Positions 6,270 through 39,307 of a stretch of DNA of 52,725 nucleotides are shown here, piece after piece. This DNA is from an uncultured Pseudomonadales bacterium (lineage in GTDB: Bacteria; Patescibacteriota; Microgenomatia; UBA1400; PJMF01). Below the pieces are notes generated by a model that saw nothing but the letters and a program-made list of their open reading frames with translations, ran no database searches and was not told the DNA's origin. Location of the stretch: positions 1 through 52,725 of the forward strand of contig CAZOWX010000010.1 of assembly GCA_964583795.1 (NCBI GenBank), written 5' to 3'. The position numbers and the translations under genes were made by a program. The first letter of the stretch is position 1; each line of letters opens with the position of its first letter.

Positions 6270-7475
6270 TTAGTTTTCTTGAACTATCCATTTACGTAAC
6301 TCTTCACTGAGGCGAACCATGAATCGGACGTTGTGGATAGATGAGAGCCGAAAGTACGTGAGCTCGTCGGTTTTAAATAAGTGTCGCAAATAACTTCTTG
6401 AATAACCTTGCTGACACGTAAAGCAATTACAACCCTCTTGAATGACACCTTGATCGAAAGTAAAGCGTTGATTTCCGATTTGCAGGCGACCTTTGGGAAA
6501 CTCTGAAATGAACTGAGGCAGATTATCTTTGATTTCAAGTTGTCCACTGTATAGTGTCCCGTTGCGTGCCAGTCGCGTCGGAGCAACACAGTCAAACATG
6601 TCATATCCAGCCAAAACAGCATCGATTAAATTTTGTGGATCACGACCCAGGCCCATGGCGTAGCGCGGTTTATCTTCGGGCAAGATATCGCGAACCCAAT
6701 CCATCAGTTCAACCGTGCCTGCCATGTTGTACCCAACGGTTTCTCCGCCAAAAGCAATGCCATCGAACTCTAAACTTTTGATAACTTCGAGTGACTCACG
6801 CCGAAGCTCAGGGTGCATGGCCCCTTGAACAATGCCAAATAATGCCTGATACGAGCCATACGCACTTTGACGGTTTTGCTGCTCCCAATACGTTTTGCAT
6901 TGTTTGGCCCAACGATGCGTTCGGTCAAGTGCCTCTCTTGCGTACTTTTCATCGGCTTTGTCGGGAGTACATTCGTCAAATGCCATGATGATATCAGCTC
7001 CAATTTGGCGCTGAATTTCAATGGCTTTTTCCGGAGAGAAAAAGTGTTTTGAGCCGTCTCGGTGTGAAGTGAACTCGACACCTTCGTTAGTAATTTTGTT
7101 GTGATTAAATTGTTTGGCAGCTGGTTGTTTGTGTTGTAATTTGACTCGTTGGTTGTCGACTATTTCGCCCAAACTAAACACTTGAAATCCCCCCGAATCG
7201 GTCAGCATGGGTTTATCCCAGCCCATGAATTGGTGTACTCCACCGGCTTTTTGGATGACTTCCATTCCAGGTGTTAAATACAGATGATAGGTGTTGGCTA
7301 AGATGATTTGAGCTTTCAATTCTTCAATATCTTGAGTGTCTAGTGATTTAATAGTGGCCAGCGTGCCAACCGGCATGAAAATAGGAGTTTGCACGACGCC
7401 GTGTTCGGTCGTAAAACGACCGGCTCTGGCATGGTGTTTGGTTTTTTCAAGTTTGAAGGTAAAGGGAGTCATCAC
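6270..7475 (-). CDS. tgt: tRNA-guanine (queuine) transglycosylase
   Basis: TPIFMPVGT, LTDSGGFQVFSL, DCVAPTR and CNCFTC..YSRSYLRHL (zinc site). Carries a ~20-aa insertion relative to E. coli Tgt as I recall it. Confidence 0.95.
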   Translation of the reverse strand: MMTPFTFKLEKTKHHARAGRFTTEHGVVQTPIFMPVGTLATIKSLDTQDIEELKAQIILANTYHLYLTPGMEVIQKAGGVHQFMGWDKPMLTDSGGFQVFSLGEIVDNQRVKLQHKQPAAKQFNHNKITNEGVEFTSHRDGSKHFFSPEKAIEIQRQIGADIIMAFDECTPDKADEKYAREALDRTHRWAKQCKTYWEQQNRQSAYGSYQALFGIVQGAMHPELRRESLEVIKSLEFDGIAFGGETVGYNMAGTVELMDWVRDILPEDKPRYAMGLGRDPQNLIDAVLAGYDMFDCVAPTRLARNGTLYSGQLEIKDNLPQFISEFPKGRLQIGNQRFTFDQGVIQEGCNCFTCQQGYSRSYLRHLFKTDELTYFRLSSIHNVRFMVRLSEELRKWIVQEN

Positions 7476-12289: not shown

Positions 12290-12375
12290 CCATTAATCCA
12301 CAATCCATAATCTACAATCTACCGTGTTCCGCGTAGCCTCTAGCGAAGTGGGATCATCCATCATCCATTATCATT
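12290..12375. repeat. 7-nt-phased tracts plus a solo copy of the cassette arm TCCATCATCCATTATC
   Basis: ccattaa tccacaa tccataa tctacaa tctaccg (12290-12324). The segment 12357-12372 is an exact 16-nt match to the right arm of the 24.2-24.6 kb cassette and overlaps the nfo stop codon. Confidence 0.8.
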
Positions 12376-13751: not shown

Positions 13752-15104
13752 TTACCAGGCAAATAATGGAAACTCTTTGGTCATCTGTTTCACTTCGTCA
13801 AAAATACTCAGTAGCACTTTATCTTTCTGAATATCTTGAATAAATGTGTTGACGAATGATTGGCGGTCCAGTTTATTTTCTGGTAATTCGTATTGCTTCA
13901 CATGGTTGGCTACTTGAGCAATCCATTTGGCAATCTGTTTCATCTCCCTCACTTTCATACCACGTGTGGTGACGAGTGGAGTGCCCAGACGAATTCCTGA
14001 TGGATAAAACGGTGATACTGGTTCATTGGGAATGGTATTGCGGTTGGCATAGAGTCCTGCTACATCCATAGCGACTGCAACCTGTTTTCCCAGACCGTAC
14101 CCTAACTGCGTAAGATCGATCAACATCAAATGCGTTTCCGTGCCATTGCCAACCAGTTTTAGTCCTTCACTTTGTAGTGCTTCGGAGAGCGCGTTGGCGT
14201 TGGTACGAATTTGCTTCGCGTAGCGGGTGAAGGCTTTGGTGCTGGCTTCTTTGGCAGCGATGGCGATAGCAGCGGTTGTGGCGTTGTGCGGCCCTCCTTG
14301 CATCCCAGGGATAATGGCAGCATTTAATTTTCTGCCCAACTGAGGATCACGATCAAGTCCACGTTGTGTGGCGAGAATCATCGCTCCACGCGGTCCGCGG
14401 AAAGTTTTATGCGTAGTACTCATGATGACATCAGCGTACGGTACTGGTGAGGGATGTTCTCCTCCGATCACCAGGCCGGTAATATGAGAGATATCACAGA
14501 CCAGCCATGCACCAACTTCATCAGCAATGTCTCGAAATGCTTTAAAATCCAGCACAAAAGGATAAGCGGTATTCCCTGCCATGATCACCTGTGGTTTATG
14601 TTTTTTGGCAAGTGTCCGGACTTCGTCAAAATCAATGCGAGCTTTCTTGTTGAGTCCGAACTGGATGCTATTATAAAAACGACCCGACGCTGTTACTTTG
14701 GGATGACCGTGAGTTAAATGTCCACCCATTACCAGTTTAAGCCCCATCAAGGTCTCACCTGGATTCATCAGGGCAAAATAAATCGCTGCATTGGCTGGTG
14801 AGCCTGAGTACGGTTGCACATTAACGTAGGGGACATTGAACAATTTTTGTACTCTATTTATCGCTTCGGTCTCAATTTTATCAACAATCTGACTGCCTTC
14901 GTAATAGCGGGCATCACTGTAGCCTTCTGAGTATTTGTTTGATAAACAAGAGGAAAGCACTGCAGAAACTTCCGGTGAGGCGTTGTTCTCTGAAGGGATC
15001 AGTCCAATTTTTTGTTTTTGTCGTTTTTCTTCCGCTTTGATAAGCGAAAAGATAGTATCTTGCTTTGGTTTTTGGGTGTTGGTTTTTGGTTGTTGGTTTA
15101 CCAT
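13752..15104 (-). CDS. glyA: serine hydroxymethyltransferase
   Basis: LIPSEN..SPEV, YSEGY...RYY.G, GGHLTHG and TTHKTFRGPRGA (PLP lysine). Confidence 0.96.
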   Translation of the reverse strand: MVNQQPKTNTQKPKQDTIFSLIKAEEKRQKQKIGLIPSENNASPEVSAVLSSCLSNKYSEGYSDARYYEGSQIVDKIETEAINRVQKLFNVPYVNVQPYSGSPANAAIYFALMNPGETLMGLKLVMGGHLTHGHPKVTASGRFYNSIQFGLNKKARIDFDEVRTLAKKHKPQVIMAGNTAYPFVLDFKAFRDIADEVGAWLVCDISHITGLVIGGEHPSPVPYADVIMSTTHKTFRGPRGAMILATQRGLDRDPQLGRKLNAAIIPGMQGGPHNATTAAIAIAAKEASTKAFTRYAKQIRTNANALSEALQSEGLKLVGNGTETHLMLIDLTQLGYGLGKQVAVAMDVAGLYANRNTIPNEPVSPFYPSGIRLGTPLVTTRGMKVREMKQIAKWIAQVANHVKQYELPENKLDRQSFVNTFIQDIQKDKVLLSIFDEVKQMTKEFPLFAW

Positions 15105-16005: not shown

Positions 16006-16165
16006 TCGTCATCCCGGCGGAAGCCGGGATCCATCATTACAGTCTGGATGCATATTTATATTGTTAGACGTCAAGGTTTTAACTCATTACTTTAATCAGT
16101 TTAAATTGTTTTGATTATTGTACATAAATTTGGGAAATGGATCCCGGCTTCCGCCGGGATGACGA
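16006..16165. repeat. pair of 29-bp hairpin repeats in inverted orientation flanking 102 bp (MITE-like)
   Basis: tcgtcatcccggcggaagccgggatccat (16006-16034) is the exact reverse complement of atggatcccggcttccgccgggatgacga (16137-16165). Each arm is itself a hairpin (ATCCCGGC/GCCGGGAT). Confidence 0.85.
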
Positions 16166-22358: not shown

Positions 22359-22393
22359 GCTACAAGCTTCAAGCTACAGGCTACAAGTGACAC
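22359..22393. repeat. 7-nt-phased tract, CTACAAG type (5 units)
   Basis: gctacaa gcttcaa gctacag gctacaa gtgacac. Confidence 0.8.
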
Positions 22394-22500: not shown

Positions 22501-22526
22501 CGTCATCCTGAACTCGTTTCAGGATC
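22501..22526 (+). repeat. CGTCATCC-hairpin repeat, TGAA-stem variant
   Basis: cgtcatcctgaa ctcg tttcaggatc. The stem is ATCCTGAA/TTCAGGAT. Confidence 0.8.
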
Positions 22527-22709
22527 TATACGCAGAAAACATGAAAAGTAGTTTCTCTTCTTCTGAAGAAGAGCCGGACTATCTGGTCGACAGGAGCATC
22601 TGTTAAGAATTTTTAAAAAAATCCTCCATGATTAAGAGATGAGTTTGCCAATAGAGACAAGATTTTAATACATAACTAATTACAATCTATCCGTCAACTA
22701 TCAGTTAAA

Positions 22710-24209
22710 CTAATTTGTTAATTGTTTTTCTAAAGTTGTCTTTACACTTTGTGGATCGACTTTCTTACCGAGCTTTCTCATCACCTGACCCATCAAAAAG
22801 CCAATGATTTGCGTTTTTCCAGCTTGATAGTCAGTGACGGCTTTTGGCTGTTCTTTAATAATAGAAGCAATAATTGTTTCAAGTTCACTCGTATCGACTG
22901 TATCAACGTGGGTAAATTCTTCAAATGTTTTGAGTAACTTGTCTGGACTCTCTAGCAACTGCGTTGCAAGTTTTTTGTTGACTAATAAATTAGCAAGTTT
23001 ATTGACATCTTGTTTGTTTTGCACAAAAAGTTGAGCGATAGCTTCGAACTGTTGCGTTTGAGTTGGAGTTACCGTGAGTACTTGCGCATAGCGTTTTTCA
23101 ACTTGATACTCTTTTCCCCATCGTTCAACGATCTGATCGGGAAGCTCTGGGAGTTGACTCTTGAGTTCATCAATTTGTTTTTGAGTGAACAGTATTGGAG
23201 GTAAATCAGGGTCAGGGAAGTAACGATAGTCTTCAGCATCTTCCTTTGACCGCTGGGAGAAAGTTTCGCTTTTTTTTTCATTCCAACCACGAGTTTCCTG
23301 CGTTGGTACTTCTCCTTTTGCAAGGATTTTTGATTGACGATCAATTTCAAATGCAACTGCCTTTTCTAGAAACCCAAACGAGTTGATATTCTTTACCTCA
23401 ACTTTATACTTGGGTAAATCTTCTTCAGTGAGACGCTTGTTGCTTGTGGCTTGTAGCTTGAAGCTATCCAAGAGCGAGATATTTGCCTCCAAGCGCAGGC
23501 TTCCCTGTTCCATGTTGCAATCAGAGATGTCCAGGAATCGCAAAATTTGACGCAGTTTTTTACCATACGCTTTTGCATGTGCTGCACTGTGGATGTCCGG
23601 TTCAGTTACAATTTCTACTAGTGGGACGCCTCCTCTATTGAAGTCAACGAGACTCACTTTTTGTTCTACAATTTTTTCAGTAGGTCCTGAATATTCATGT
23701 CTCAAATTTTTTGTATTTTCTTGTGGAGTTCGACTTGACTTTTCAGGATGACGGTTTGCAGAATTAACCGAGATAGTTTGATGAATCAATTTTCCAGTAT
23801 CTTCTTCCAAGTGAATACGGCGAATACGCACCGGCCCTTCTTCTGTCTCCAGAATGCCATGTTCACAAAACGGAATATCGTACTGACTAATCTGATAGCC
23901 TTTTGGCAAATCAGGGTAGAAGTAGTTTTTTCGATCAAACTTGGAAAACAAGTTGATTGTACAGTTGAGCGCCAGTCCTAACTTAATGGTCCACTCAATA
24001 GCCTTTTTATTGGCAACTGGCAGCGCTCCAGGCATGCCAAGACACACTGGGCATGTGTAGACATTCGGTTTCGGAGCGTGGAAGGGATCATTTTTACAAC
24101 CACAAAACATTTTGGAATTAGTCTTTAGTTCGGCATGAACTTCCATACCGATTATTGGGGTATAGATAATGGATGATGGATGATGGATGGATGACTTTTT
24201 ATTTTTCAT
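22710..24209 (-). CDS. gatB: Asp/Glu-tRNA amidotransferase subunit B
   Basis: IIGMEVHAEL.T.SKMFCGC, FDRKNYFYPDLPKGYQISQ, HLEEDTGK, VDFNRGGVPLVEIVTEPD, DYRYFPDPDLPP. Its start forms an ATGA overlap with the stop of the upstream four-helix-bundle gene. Confidence 0.95.
   Translation of the reverse strand: MKNKKSSIHHPSSIIYTPIIGMEVHAELKTNSKMFCGCKNDPFHAPKPNVYTCPVCLGMPGALPVANKKAIEWTIKLGLALNCTINLFSKFDRKNYFYPDLPKGYQISQYDIPFCEHGILETEEGPVRIRRIHLEEDTGKLIHQTISVNSANRHPEKSSRTPQENTKNLRHEYSGPTEKIVEQKVSLVDFNRGGVPLVEIVTEPDIHSAAHAKAYGKKLRQILRFLDISDCNMEQGSLRLEANISLLDSFKLQATSNKRLTEEDLPKYKVEVKNINSFGFLEKAVAFEIDRQSKILAKGEVPTQETRGWNEKKSETFSQRSKEDAEDYRYFPDPDLPPILFTQKQIDELKSQLPELPDQIVERWGKEYQVEKRYAQVLTVTPTQTQQFEAIAQLFVQNKQDVNKLANLLVNKKLATQLLESPDKLLKTFEEFTHVDTVDTSELETIIASIIKEQPKAVTDYQAGKTQIIGFLMGQVMRKLGKKVDPQSVKTTLEKQLTN
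23683..23754 (-). mobile_element. 72-bp palindromic-repeat copy inserted in frame within gatB
   Basis: The termini ggtcctgaa...ttcaggatgacgg match the repeat at 34805-34855 (gatcctgaa...ttcaggatgacgac). The segment encodes RHPEKSSRTPQENTKNLRHEYSGP, 24 codons. Confidence 0.6.
24161..24195. repeat. left arm of cassette 1 (7-nt-phased tract containing a 19-bp perfect IR arm at 24162-24180)
   Basis: tatagat aatggat gatggat gatggat ggatgac. It lies within gatB codons 5-16. Confidence 0.9.
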
Positions 24210-24574
24210 TTTTTTTCTAACTTAAACTTTCTAAAAGCTCTAATTCTTTTAATAAGTATTACAATTTCATTAATCAATTCATCGTTTCGAAGCAATTGCA
24301 TTTTCTGACAGAAGTATAATTGTGACAAACATTCATATGCCGAATTAATTGCGATTTTTATATATTTGGTTTCCTCTTTAATCGATTCGCAACCACTTCC
24401 CTCAGCTATATTGCTGGAAATTGATAAACTTGATCGATTCATCTGGTCCCCAATTGATTTTTTATGTTCAATTGAAAATCGTTGGGTTAAATTAAAAATT
24501 TTAACTGCAAAATCGAGTGAGTTTTGCCAAATTTCTAATTTTTCAAAAGGTGCTCCCATCGGTCCATCATCCAT
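24206..24574 (-). CDS. four-helix-bundle protein (23S rRNA intervening-sequence protein / Avd-like family)
   Basis: FEKLEIWQNSLDFAVKIF.L...F........DQM.RSS.SISSNIAEG.G..S.KE...Y..IA..S..E. The start is more likely M6 at 24559, which leaves the IR arm outside the ORF. Confidence 0.85.
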   Translation of the reverse strand: MDDGPMGAPFEKLEIWQNSLDFAVKIFNLTQRFSIEHKKSIGDQMNRSSLSISSNIAEGSGCESIKEETKYIKIAINSAYECLSQLYFCQKMQLLRNDELINEIVILIKRIRAFRKFKLEKK

Positions 24575-24595
24575 TATCTATGATCTATATATCTA
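24561..24595. repeat. right arm of cassette 1 (19-bp perfect IR arm at 24563-24581)
   Basis: ggtccat catccat tatctat gatctat atatcta. The segment tccatcatccattatctat is the reverse complement of 24162-24180. Confidence 0.9.
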
Positions 24596-25100: not shown

Positions 25101-25163
25101 CTATTCTCTATAATCCCTCACCTATTATCTATACATCCATCTTCCTCCACTCATTCCACTGTG
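25101..25163. repeat. 7-nt-phased tract (9 units) spanning the gatA-nudix spacer and the last 11 gatA codons
   Basis: ctattct ctataat ccctcac ctattat ctataca tccatct tcctcca ctcattc cactgtg. Confidence 0.8.
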
Positions 25164-26526
25164 TAGCTTTCTCAAACGCATCGCCGACTTTAATCGCAAG
25201 ATCTTCACGAAACATGGGGGCCACGATGTTCATTCCCAAGTAGAGATTAGTTTTTTCATCTTTATAGCATGGGACGTTAACACCAGGTAGTCCGGTCATG
25301 GAGCTTGGTTCAACCAGCATGTCTTCGAGCTCTCCAAACATGACTTCGCCATCGGTGACGCCAATCTTTTTTGCAAATCCTGGTGATGTTAGAGAGACAA
25401 GGACATCATATTTTTTAAACAACTGTTCAAAATCTTGTCGGAATTGAGTGCGTACTTTTTGAGCGAGGACATAATACTTGTCAGCGTACCCTTTACTGAG
25501 TGTATACGTTCCAAGCAAAATTCTGCGCCGTGCTTCATCACCAAAAAAAGAACGATCATTGCCATAGCGTACCCCATCATAGCGAGCCAGATTACTACTG
25601 ACTTCACTGCGCTGAATGACAGTGTAAATGGCGATTGCGTACTTTGGGTCAAGCGCTTGTGCTAATTCAACCTTTGCTCCTAATCCCTCAAGCACTTTTA
25701 ATGCTTGTTCAAACTGTGGTTTGACAGATGTTAGACCTGGGATATCCATATACAGCACTCCAACTTTGAGACCTTTGATGTTTTGATTCAAAAATTGGGT
25801 GTAATCAGGGATACTTTGTGGTGATGAGGTCCCGTCAAAAGGATCGTGACCAGCAATGGTATTGAAAATAATAGTGGCATCTTCTACCGTCTTGGTCATT
25901 GGTCCAGGACTATCAAGTGAAGATCCCATGGCGACCACTCCGTAGCGGCTCACTCTTCCATAGGTGGGTTTGAGCCCAACAATGCCACACCAGGCGGCTG
26001 GTTGACGAATTGAACCTGCTGTTTCTGAGCCGATTGCTGCAATACACATATTGGCAGCAACTGCTGCCGCACTGCCTCCAGATGATCCTCCTGGAAGGTG
26101 TTCTGGATTACGTGGGTTGAGCGTACGTCCGTATTGAGAAGTTTCAGTGGATGATCCGTGTGCCCAAGCATCAAGGTTGGTTTTACCGATGATCAGTCCT
26201 CCTGCTTCTTTGACCCTTTTCGTAACGGTTGATTCGTATGGTGGAATAAAGGTATCAAGAACGGTAGATGATGCCGTTGTACGAAGTCCTTTGGTTAAGA
26301 AGTTATCTTTCACCGCAATAGGAATGCCGGCGAGAGGCTGCGTTTTCGTTGGAATGAGTGATTTCGACTTGATTGCTTGTTCATCAAGAGTCAAAAACAC
26401 ATTCAGTTTTTTATTTTCACTTTCAATGTTTTTCATTGCACTTTGCCACAATTCAGCAGCACTAAACGTTTTATCTTTTAGCCCCTGAAGTGCTTGTTTG
26501 AGAGTAAGGTGTGCAAGAGATGACAT
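25129..26526 (-). CDS. gatA: Asp/Glu-tRNA amidotransferase subunit A
   Basis: Amidase signature GGSSGGSAAAVAA....A.GSETAGSIRQPA..CG.VG.KPTYG. Confidence 0.96.
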   Translation of the reverse strand: MSSLAHLTLKQALQGLKDKTFSAAELWQSAMKNIESENKKLNVFLTLDEQAIKSKSLIPTKTQPLAGIPIAVKDNFLTKGLRTTASSTVLDTFIPPYESTVTKRVKEAGGLIIGKTNLDAWAHGSSTETSQYGRTLNPRNPEHLPGGSSGGSAAAVAANMCIAAIGSETAGSIRQPAAWCGIVGLKPTYGRVSRYGVVAMGSSLDSPGPMTKTVEDATIIFNTIAGHDPFDGTSSPQSIPDYTQFLNQNIKGLKVGVLYMDIPGLTSVKPQFEQALKVLEGLGAKVELAQALDPKYAIAIYTVIQRSEVSSNLARYDGVRYGNDRSFFGDEARRRILLGTYTLSKGYADKYYVLAQKVRTQFRQDFEQLFKKYDVLVSLTSPGFAKKIGVTDGEVMFGELEDMLVEPSSMTGLPGVNVPCYKDEKTNLYLGMNIVAPMFREDLAIKVGDAFEKATQWNEWRKMDV

Positions 26527-32396: not shown

Positions 32397-32431
32397 AACT
32401 CAAAGTTCAAAGCTCATAACTCAAAATTTAA
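32397..32431. repeat. left arm of cassette 2 (7-nt-phased)
   Basis: aactcaa agttcaa agctcat aactcaa aatttaa. The segment 32418-32429 (aactcaaaattt) is the exact reverse complement of 32847-32858. Confidence 0.8.
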
Positions 32432-32836: not shown

Positions 32837-32878
32837 TTGGAGCTTGAAATTTTGAGTTTTGAATTATGAGTTATGCGA
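32837..32878. repeat. right arm of cassette 2 (7-nt-phased), overlapping the htpX stop
   Basis: ttggagc ttgaaat tttgagt tttgaat tatgagt tatgcga. Confidence 0.8.
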
Positions 32879-39272: not shown

Positions 39273-39307
39273 CCTGAAACCTTAGACCTGACACCTGAAA
39301 CCTAGCA
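39273..39307. repeat. 7-nt-phased tract (5 units) abutting the tRNA-Thr 3' end
   Basis: cctgaaa ccttaga cctgaca cctgaaa cctagca. Confidence 0.8.

Follow-up and report, generated by a model that had tools for sequence, protein, structure and literature searches.

Heptanucleotide repeats, known as STRR (short tandemly repeated repetitive) sequences in cyanobacteria or long simple sequence repeats (LSSRs), were reportedly described by Mazel et al. in 1990 and by Mrazek, Guo & Shah in 2007, and Vioque is said to have found STRRs inside the RNase P RNA gene of heterocystous cyanobacteria in 1997. Rickettsia palindromic elements (RPEs) were reportedly detected in frame within protein genes by Ogata et al. 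in 2000. In those parts of the work of Mrazek and colleagues that are relayed by MacGregor 2015 (PMC4679880), heptanucleotides are the commonest long simple sequence repeats (SSRs), and units of 3n are those that occur in coding sequences (CDS). MacGregor 2015 deals with the TAACTGA heptamers of marine Beggiatoaceae, which are located mainly in intergenic regions near start codons, some of them overlapping or lying within open reading frames (ORFs); those in ORFs are mostly found at the start or end of the protein, their orientation is limited by stop codons, and it was argued that insertions survive at the protein periphery. The tandem repeats of Borgs occur both between and inside genes, and those inside genes all have unit lengths that are multiples of three (Schoelmerich et al. 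2023; PMC9879509). Here, we have analysed a 52.7-kb stretch of DNA (contig CAZOWX010000010.1, called the window in the following) from a member of the Patescibacteria (candidate phyla radiation, CPR), and uncovered short heptamer arrays in its spacers as well as in frame within the genes glyA and gatB. As far as can be judged from the sequences, heptamer arrays that are translated within essential genes, at permissive sites, appear to be a real phenomenon that is related to the known heptanucleotide repeats. In the literature searched, no report was found that joins Patescibacteria and heptanucleotide repeats.

The window has a GC content of about 42%, is 82% coding, and carries densely packed housekeeping genes, mostly on the minus strand. 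The nearest genome relatives of its Tgt are metagenome-assembled genomes (MAGs) of Patescibacteria/Microgenomates, the best of them (L001) showing 80% identity. All comparisons, including the census of coding and intergenic arrays, cover the window and the fetched loci of relatives. An array was defined as a 7-nt unit repeated head to tail in at least three copies with a periodicity above chance; in the scoring of runs, matches counted +1 and mismatches -2, and runs were kept from a score of 10 upwards, with dinucleotide shuffles as the null, and the periodicity of single segments was determined as the lag-7 self-match against the composition expectation, given as z and shuffle p. In the window, 11 arrays of period 7 were detected compared with 0.15 in the shuffles, and no other non-harmonic period between 4 and 13 yielded more than two. 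Tandem Repeats Finder (TRF) reported many period-7 rows as well. At a lower run-score threshold of 8, used for the tally of positions, seven of the 13 arrays were intergenic, three straddled gene ends, and three were located wholly in CDS, meaning that many loci, chiefly non-coding ones, are occupied. Their units vary by locus (AACCAAM, ATCCATC, AGCNNCA, GCTACAA, CTCAAAG, and others). This density is lineage-restricted, with a single array in the 94 kb of 14 other CPR tgt loci and none in the loci of the closer relatives L083 (15.5 kb) and L084 (21 kb); L081, which has the closest GatB (69% identical), does carry arrays. Inside genes, heptanucleotide tandem repeats of the STRR/LSSR type were found at 15064-15098 in glyA and at 23435-23465 and 24165-24189 in gatB (TRF; run scores of 13-15; z=3.0-5.9).

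The features of the glyA locus are:

13752..15104, minus strand: glyA (serine hydroxymethyltransferase), 450 aa; PF00464 and N-terminal alignment
15064..15098, minus strand: heptamer array (AACCAAM)5, GlyA residues ~3-14 (NQQPKTNTQKPK); TRF, run score 13, z=3.0-3.6

An earlier note, made from the letters of this DNA alone, had described the start of glyA as heptameric, and this is borne out: codons 3-14 correspond to (AACCAAM)5 on the coding strand, with a TRF score of 63 at period 14 and p=0.0004-0.003, and the N-terminal peptide encoded across the array would include MVNQQPKTNTQK. Having 450 aa, GlyA differs from most of 40 relatives, which have 437 aa and begin with M[TP]DIIF; a minority of these relatives display variable N-terminal extensions rich in T, K, N, Q, and P. 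Upstream of the gene, L083 and L084 can be aligned with the window, TATACT box and ATG included, and 39 extra nt follow in the window right after this positionally conserved ATG. There is no other ATG, GTG, or TTG before the conserved IFSLIK, and an AGGA is located 8 nt upstream of the ATG. Because no alternative start of these three kinds exists upstream of the conserved residues, the N-terminal arrays of both glyA and gatB are likely to be translated. The glyA array is identical in L082, a 98.0% identical strain (3153 nt with 63 mismatches and 0 gaps), and neither a second copy of its unit nor an inverted partner was found in the window. The GlyA extension of L167 is itself a heptamer array, (AACCACY)4, with z=3.3. 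The extensions of L083, L166, L168, and L169 are A/C-rich without 7-periodicity, so that some extensions are not derived from arrays.

Two further coding arrays are located in gatB, where the following features were identified:

22710..24209, minus strand: gatB, 499 aa; PF02934, PF02637, and alignments with relatives and Protein Data Bank (PDB) entries
23435..23465, minus strand: heptamer array, GCTTGTN on the plus strand and AGCNNCA on the coding strand, GatB residues 249-259 (SFKLQATSNKR), loop after EANISL; z=5.9
22359..22392, plus strand: intergenic array (GCTACAA)n in the gatB-dnaE spacer, inverted partner of the gatB loop array; complementarity, alignment score
24165..24189, minus strand: heptamer array, ATCCATC on the coding strand, GatB residues 7-15 (SIHHPSSII), right arm of a cassette; z=5.2
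24206..24574, minus strand: small ORF encoding a protein of the 23S rRNA intervening-sequence family; PF05635, E=7.2e-26
24557..24589, minus strand: left arm of the cassette, heptamer array; inverted-pair search

GatB comprises 499 aa compared with 440-446 in most relatives. In the alignment with 20 of them, three places vary, namely the N-terminus with its extension, the insert that follows HQTIS, and the loop behind EANISL, and lengths at the N-terminus and the EANISL loop also vary in comparison with the GatB proteins of the PDB. The array in this loop, to which the earlier note had also pointed, is real (p≤0.0002 at lag 7). In length, the loop exceeds its counterparts in Thermotoga maritima GatB and L084 by about 12 residues. 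According to the AlphaFold model, it lies between strands 238-248 and 270-275, and the block 250-259 has a mean predicted local distance difference test (pLDDT) score of 63 versus 84-90 on each side, while residues 1-11 stay below 50. The loop array shows an inverted match of 28 nt at 86% with positions 22365-22392 of the spacer array about 1 kb away, and the alignment score of this pair, 18, lies above all 200 shuffles (null maximum 14). As an additional observation, the spacer between gatB and dnaE (22501-22528) and the interior of gatB (23742-23753) contain CGTCATCCTGAA, a word of 12 nt, and its exact complement, the gatB copy being part of the insert after HQTIS (residues ~150-180, pLDDT <50). 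Together with the pairing of the loop array, this means that gatB has two different repeat-type inserts, each with an inverted counterpart in the downstream spacer.

The N-terminal array of gatB is part of a cassette located between a NUDIX gene and gatB. A PF05635 ORF of 122 aa, which belongs to an Avd-like family, is enclosed by the arms 24161-24193 and 24557-24589. These are inverted with respect to each other and agree at 85% over 33 nt, and at 100% in a core of 19 nt. Its start lies inside the left-arm array, and its stop overlaps the ATG of gatB (ATGA). Such an ORF, with the S23p / PF05635 protein, is also known from intervening sequences (IVSs) of the 23S rRNA in Coxiella and Leptospira. 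The cassette is missing from L081 and L084, where a distance of 1 nt separates NUDIX from gatB; on this comparison, the N-terminal array has arrived in gatB together with the cassette. The arrangement of a PF05635 ORF flanked by inverted repeats was found for this array only. The annotated start of the ORF (ATGGATGATGGACCGATG, 24557-24574) sits in the heptamer array of the left arm, and the second Met is probably where the conserved protein begins. The unit of the N-terminal array occurs again at 12353, 24563, and 34930, and that of the loop array at 22359-22392. L081 bears arrays at the same two gatB sites, though with the unrelated units TACAACN and TTCCACN.

Strain variation gave further insights into the behavior of these arrays. 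Run X2 yielded contigs that match the window exactly, and runs X1, X4, X5, and X6 revealed a second gatB allele over ~23367-23523 that has equal length and no gaps. Its loop reads LLDSSKLQGAGYKLLTDKD instead of LLDSFKLQATSNKRLTEED; nearly all of its nine non-synonymous changes are concentrated in the loop of about 16 codons, 16 synonymous changes are found in the flanks, and the lag-7 match is still 0.61. Mutagenesis of the type caused by diversity-generating retroelements (DGRs) was considered for this allele and rejected, the substitutions not being adenine-specific and the synonymous changes reaching into the flanks; it resembles a recombined allele. Runs X5 and X7 have 224-235 unrelated letters in place of positions 24159-24385, which hold the N-terminal array and the start of gatB as well as the 3' half of the PF05635 gene. 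Hence, strains that are otherwise near-identical vary in the cassette and the GatB N-terminus. Unit-number indels, as expected for phase-variable SSRs, were seen neither in the 3153 nt of L082 nor in the gatB arrays of the four runs, and the strain data thus indicate variation by substitution or block replacement and not by slippage of units.

Insertions of at least two residues were collected from 22 orthologous gene sets of the window, L081, L083, and L084. Three of them overlap arrays (glyA 2-6, gatB 14-15, and gatB 250-254), in line with the expectation of the earlier note that lineage-specific indels would coincide with period-7 DNA. The remaining window-specific insertions are two C-terminal differences of 2 residues and six N-terminal items, which look like start-codon choices of the ORF map. 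The idea that a length of 63 nt (9x7 nt or 21 codons) preserves both the phase of the heptamer and the reading frame has to be abandoned, as the tgt insert has 20 residues and is non-periodic and the net changes elsewhere amount to 13, ~12, ~12, and 2 codons; no 21-codon or 7-codon rule was found in the 22 gene sets.

Arrays within gatB are not confined to the window. We surveyed 80 distant CPR gatB loci with a total of 465 kb, of which 115 kb are gatB CDS; they stem from a metagenome scan, and the relatives are at most 57% identical, none of them close. Period 7 accounted for 39 arrays in these loci, compared with at most 12 for other non-harmonic periods, and for 16 arrays in 13 genes within the CDS, compared with 1, 3, and 1 for periods 6, 9, and 12. 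Some of these arrays are perfect repeats of 4.7-5.3 units. The gatB arrays fall, with differing units, at five alignment sites, namely the N-terminus, a hairpin around ..LET/EEGPVRI.., the EANISL loop, the xQIxxLKSQIPELP helix (site D), and the C-terminal variable region. Six lineages, among them the window and L081, have arrays at the EANISL loop, each with a unit of its own. At site D (columns 540-559), AAATCTC/AAATTTC arrays of L092, L093, L095, L112, and L149 encode the conserved xQIxxLKSQI helix without any indel, which means that array sequence replaces homologous sequence there. At identical residues of site D, the codons are identical in 58/77 cases within the arrays compared with a fraction of ~0.44 in the rest of the gene, suggesting homogenisation or a constraint at the nucleotide level. 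In folD, in-frame arrays were detected in the same variable loop of L167 (4378-4404, AACCACC) and L168 (4750-4775, CCACACT), with 1-2 extra residues. That coding arrays in general possess inverted partners had to be rejected: a significant partner exists only for the two gatB arrays of the window, and none was found for the 16 other coding arrays tested, of which that of L105 was borderline and 15 did not exceed the shuffle mean or fell clearly short of the maximum. Outside the CPR, a (CCAGCAT)n array of 250 nt was noticed in a Ferruginibacter MAG (L036:6398-6647), and intergenic heptamer arrays were noticed in Geobacter and Deefgea tgt loci; the heptamer repeat class is thus widespread beyond the CPR.

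For gatA, only a small part of the expected heptamer coding could be retained. The two features concerned are:

25129..26526, minus strand: gatA, 465 aa, with a C-terminus conserved through ..KATQWNEWR; PF01425 and alignment with L081 and L084
25089..25140, minus strand: spacer of ~50 nt between gatA and NUDIX, weakly 7-phased (ATAGRNN); z=1.0-1.8

The last 11 codons of gatA had been assigned to a heptamer tract. New, however, are just the last 2-3 codons and the stop, where K-M-D-V plus stop differs from the NN/NK of L081 and L084; the remainder is orthologous, with ..FEKATQWNEWR being aligned with both relatives. The periodicity of the tract 25101-25163 is marginal at lag 7 (z=1.8, p=0.05), and that of the 52-nt spacer reaches z=1.0. 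The genes gatA and NUDIX overlap in L081 and L084 (TAATG / ATGA), whereas about 50 nt separate them in the window, and this spacer provides the final 2-3 codons of gatA and its stop.

The gene tgt, with which the proposal of heptamer-derived protein segments had begun, turned out to be a different case:

6270..7475, minus strand: tgt (queuine tRNA-ribosyltransferase), 401 aa; PF01702, E=1.9e-131, and orthologue alignments
7095..7157, minus strand: tgt loop insert of 20-21 codons, DNQRVKLQHKQPAAKQFNHNK, without heptamer array; periodicity test and alignment with orthologues and PDB

The position of the segment and its peptide DNQRVKLQHKQPAAKQFNHNK had been given correctly, and the E. coli-type sequence given for comparison, FSLGDIRKITEQGVHF, agrees with PDB chain 10fb_A. 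The claimed heptamer phasing of the 63 nt is not there, since the lag-7 match of 0.34 is the value that the T/G-rich composition of the segment leads one to expect (z=-0.2, shuffle p=0.63). Lags 3, 4, and 12 outscore lag 7, the segment is at the 88th percentile among all 63-nt windows, and no heptanucleotide array was reported between 7095 and 7157 by TRF or the run detector. In a HMMER alignment with the E. coli-type TGT (10fb_A), the insert has exactly 20 residues. All of the 14 CPR relatives carry an insert of variable length (~5-50 residues) at the same point after FQVFSLG, compared with never more than 3 residues in the aligned non-CPR orthologues. L083, whose Tgt is 86% identical and whose locus is free of arrays, retains 19/21 insert residues, the codon changes being eight synonymous and two non-synonymous ones; over the 395 codons compared in the whole gene, 185 synonymous and 52 non-synonymous differences were counted. 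This retention, with mostly synonymous changes, is the reason to regard the loop as inherited and under purifying selection. The insert of L001 has the same length and an unrelated sequence. A lag-7 signal is absent from the tgt inserts of L083, L001, L002, L006, L014, and L007, and no array was found within the tgt coding region of 80 loci scanned. Residues 98-122 are predicted by AlphaFold with pLDDT <50, the model mean being 87.8. On the alignments at hand, the segment is a 20-residue insert in a loop that is variable across the CPR, lacks 7-nt periodicity, and is under purifying selection. Two side observations concern the same protein. The insert of L007:3001-4248 is a 47-residue low-complexity tract rich in N, S, and K, encoded by period-12 DNA (z=5.2). 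A second clade-specific insert of ~14 residues (..SGQLEIKDNLPQFISEFPKG..) was noticed at residues ~310-330 in all CPR Tgt proteins and in the Verrucomicrobia MAG L028, being missing from the other aligned non-CPR orthologues.

Some of the non-coding arrays and repeats of the window deserve mention in their own right. The AP-endonuclease gene and htpX have arrays (12353-12372 and 32850-32875, respectively) that start right at their stop codon or immediately behind it, and the array at 32400-32423 stops directly 5' of the likely ATG of clpB, where a TTG start at 32410 looks like an artefact of the ORF caller. An array of the (CCTGAAA) type at 39279-39303 is located, judged by eye, just upstream (plus strand) of a putative tRNA gene on the minus strand. 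The upp-pyrG spacer contains a perfect 29-nt inverted repeat, TCGTCATCCCGGCGGAAGCCGGGATCCAT, at 16006-16034 and 16137-16165 with 102 nt between its arms, which resembles CGTC-tagged palindromic repeats elsewhere in the window.

Taken together, we consider it probable that weakly constrained coding DNA receives the same short degenerate heptamer arrays as the spacers and that these are tolerated rather than recruited. The lineage would accumulate degenerate heptanucleotide arrays of ~25-35 nt (3.5-5 units) that are STRR/LSSR-like and mostly abut gene ends, and the process filling the spacers would also place arrays in weakly constrained coding DNA. Those that persist there would be in frame, free of stops, and translated as low-complexity N-terminal tails or surface-loop residues, as proposed for GlyA ~3-14, GatB 7-15, and GatB 249-259 and, trivially, for the last 2-3 codons and the stop of gatA. 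GatB 7-15 would correspond to the right arm of the inserted PF05635 cassette, which may also have donated the new start codon of gatB. Only stop-free orientations persist in frame, the reverse strands of the gatB arrays, for example, containing TAG or TGA. A stepwise expansion by +7 from scratch is unlikely because the intermediates would frameshift essential genes; block copying or template switching from other arrays, or a templated misalignment that overwrites local sequence, may have been the origin instead. Afterwards, the coding arrays would keep their length and change by point substitution, presumably under selective neutrality. A number of observations weigh against this reading. A significant inverted partner was found only for the two gatB arrays of the window and for 0/16 of the other coding arrays; insertion of blocks fails for the gatB site D and folD arrays, which replace homologous sequence with little or no indel; and the codon identity at site D hints at nucleotide-level constraint or ongoing homogenisation and not at simple neutral decay. 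Moreover, translation is deduced from reading frames, and the census of coding and intergenic arrays spans the 52.7 kb and the fetched loci.

Among the other explanations, classical slipped-strand microsatellites, i.e., contingency loci in which gain or loss of a 7-nt unit switches the expression of glyA and gatB or varies the proteins, seem very improbable to us. In many bacteria, the long SSRs belong most often to the class of heptanucleotides, for which polymerase slippage has been proposed (Mrazek et al., as far as relayed in PMC4679880), and perfect arrays do exist in some distant gatB genes. However, the arrays of the window are degenerate, their length has changed neither in the 98%-identical strain nor in the diverged gatB loop allele of four runs, strain differences consist of substitutions or block replacement, and a change by one unit would frameshift essential single-copy housekeeping genes. 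The earlier note had proposed instead that the heptamers of the spacers were exapted as parts of proteins. What stands of this is their in-frame occurrence in the glyA N-terminus and the gatB loop, to which the gatB N-terminus can be added; a sign of function was not found. That the encoded peptides were recruited as functional extensions or loops might be argued from the persistence of arrays in essential genes, from the arrays borne by the same loops in many lineages, and from the purifying selection on the tgt insert, although the latter is no array. But no part of gatB diverges more between the two alleles than the loop, the units and hence the peptides of relatives are unrelated at the same sites, most relatives do without the segments, and the structural models predict the array segments with low confidence. 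The evidence fits tolerated repeat DNA better than a recruited function, and we attach little credence to recruitment. For the tgt segment itself, it might be supposed that an old heptamer array decayed past recognition and was later fixed as a constrained loop, considering that coding arrays accumulate point substitutions at constant length, that the coding strand of the insert is rich in A and C, as is that of the glyA array, and that the site is an indel hotspot across the CPR. This is disfavoured by the missing lag-7 signal in the window, L083, and the inserts of five other relatives, by the lack of arrays inside tgt in all 80 scanned loci, and by the age of the insert, which predates the split from L083 with its array-free 15.5-kb locus, making such a decay highly doubtful.

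The arrays could also act in cis as nucleic-acid signals, either as stem arms processed by RNase III as in the 23S rRNA IVSs or as phased protein-binding sites, with selection working on the RNA or DNA level. Consistent with this, two arrays form inverted arms around the PF05635 ORF, the gatB loop array can pair over 28 nt (86%) with one located shortly upstream of dnaE, the site-D arrays of distant gatB genes have an elevated synonymous codon identity, and arrays abut stop and start codons very tightly. In contrast, neither the glyA array nor 16 other coding arrays have a partner, the units differ by locus and offer no single binding motif, and a stem with a range of 1 kb within a translated mRNA is unlikely, so that we regard a signal function as improbable. 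A bolder proposal, which we rate as rather unlikely and advance as speculation, is that in the CPR, and perhaps in other uncultured phyla, an active templated process or an ultra-small array element writes tracts of ~30-35 nt (~4-5 units of a locally chosen 7-nt word) into weakly constrained DNA, including the loops of GatB, GlyA, and FolD, sometimes overwriting at constant length, and then keeps these tracts homogeneous; the arrays could in that case be nucleic-acid signals, e.g., processing stems linked to PF05635, and not junk. It is compatible with the data because period 7 dominates the gatB CDS (16 vs 1-3), the five sites recur with different units, and synonymous identity is raised. Tolerance of arrays that arrive in weakly constrained coding DNA is still the explanation we favour. 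The tgt case implies that loop inserts with a biased composition may be mistaken for repeat-derived ones unless their periodicity is tested.

A comparison with the described systems shows how the arrays of the window can be placed. They share with STRRs and LSSRs the tandem 7-nt units in few to several copies at many, mostly intergenic loci and a lineage-restricted abundance; they differ in their degenerate and locus-specific units, in their CPR host, and in being apparently translated inside essential protein genes. The TAACTGA system also displays direct heptamer repeats between genes and at ORF ends, but it has one conserved unit whereas many units occur here, and recurrent internal sites in surface loops of housekeeping enzymes across lineages are not described for TAACTGA in PMC4679880. 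As in the case of the RPEs, apparently dispersed repeat DNA of a non-coding type lies in frame and would be read as extra surface segments, with the protein function presumably being preserved. RPEs, however, are palindromic, form defined families, and have 100-150 nt, unlike the ~30-nt tandem heptamers found here; these are direct repeats with complementarity only to separate partner arrays and lack the internal palindrome of an RPE. The PF05635 ORF within inverted repeats at 24161-24589 resembles the IVSs of the 23S rRNA, but it is located between the protein genes NUDIX and gatB, and one of its arms would have become codons 7-15 of gatB. Like the amino acid tandem repeats (aaTRs) of Borgs, the genic arrays add low-complexity, disordered protein segments and evolve fast. 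The Borg repeats are 3n, perfect, and variable, in contrast to the degenerate, length-stable arrays described here, whose unit of 7 nt is not divisible by three, so that each unit is read in three frames. While genic units are 3n in the SSR surveys, as far as relayed, and in the Borg work, the dominant coding unit here and in 13/80 other CPR gatB genes is one of 7 nt. Arrays of this unit at a few recurrent permissive sites of essential enzymes point to a source of new protein segments that is strong, lineage-specific, and either mutational or mobile, and which could account for part of the unusual insertions in CPR proteins.

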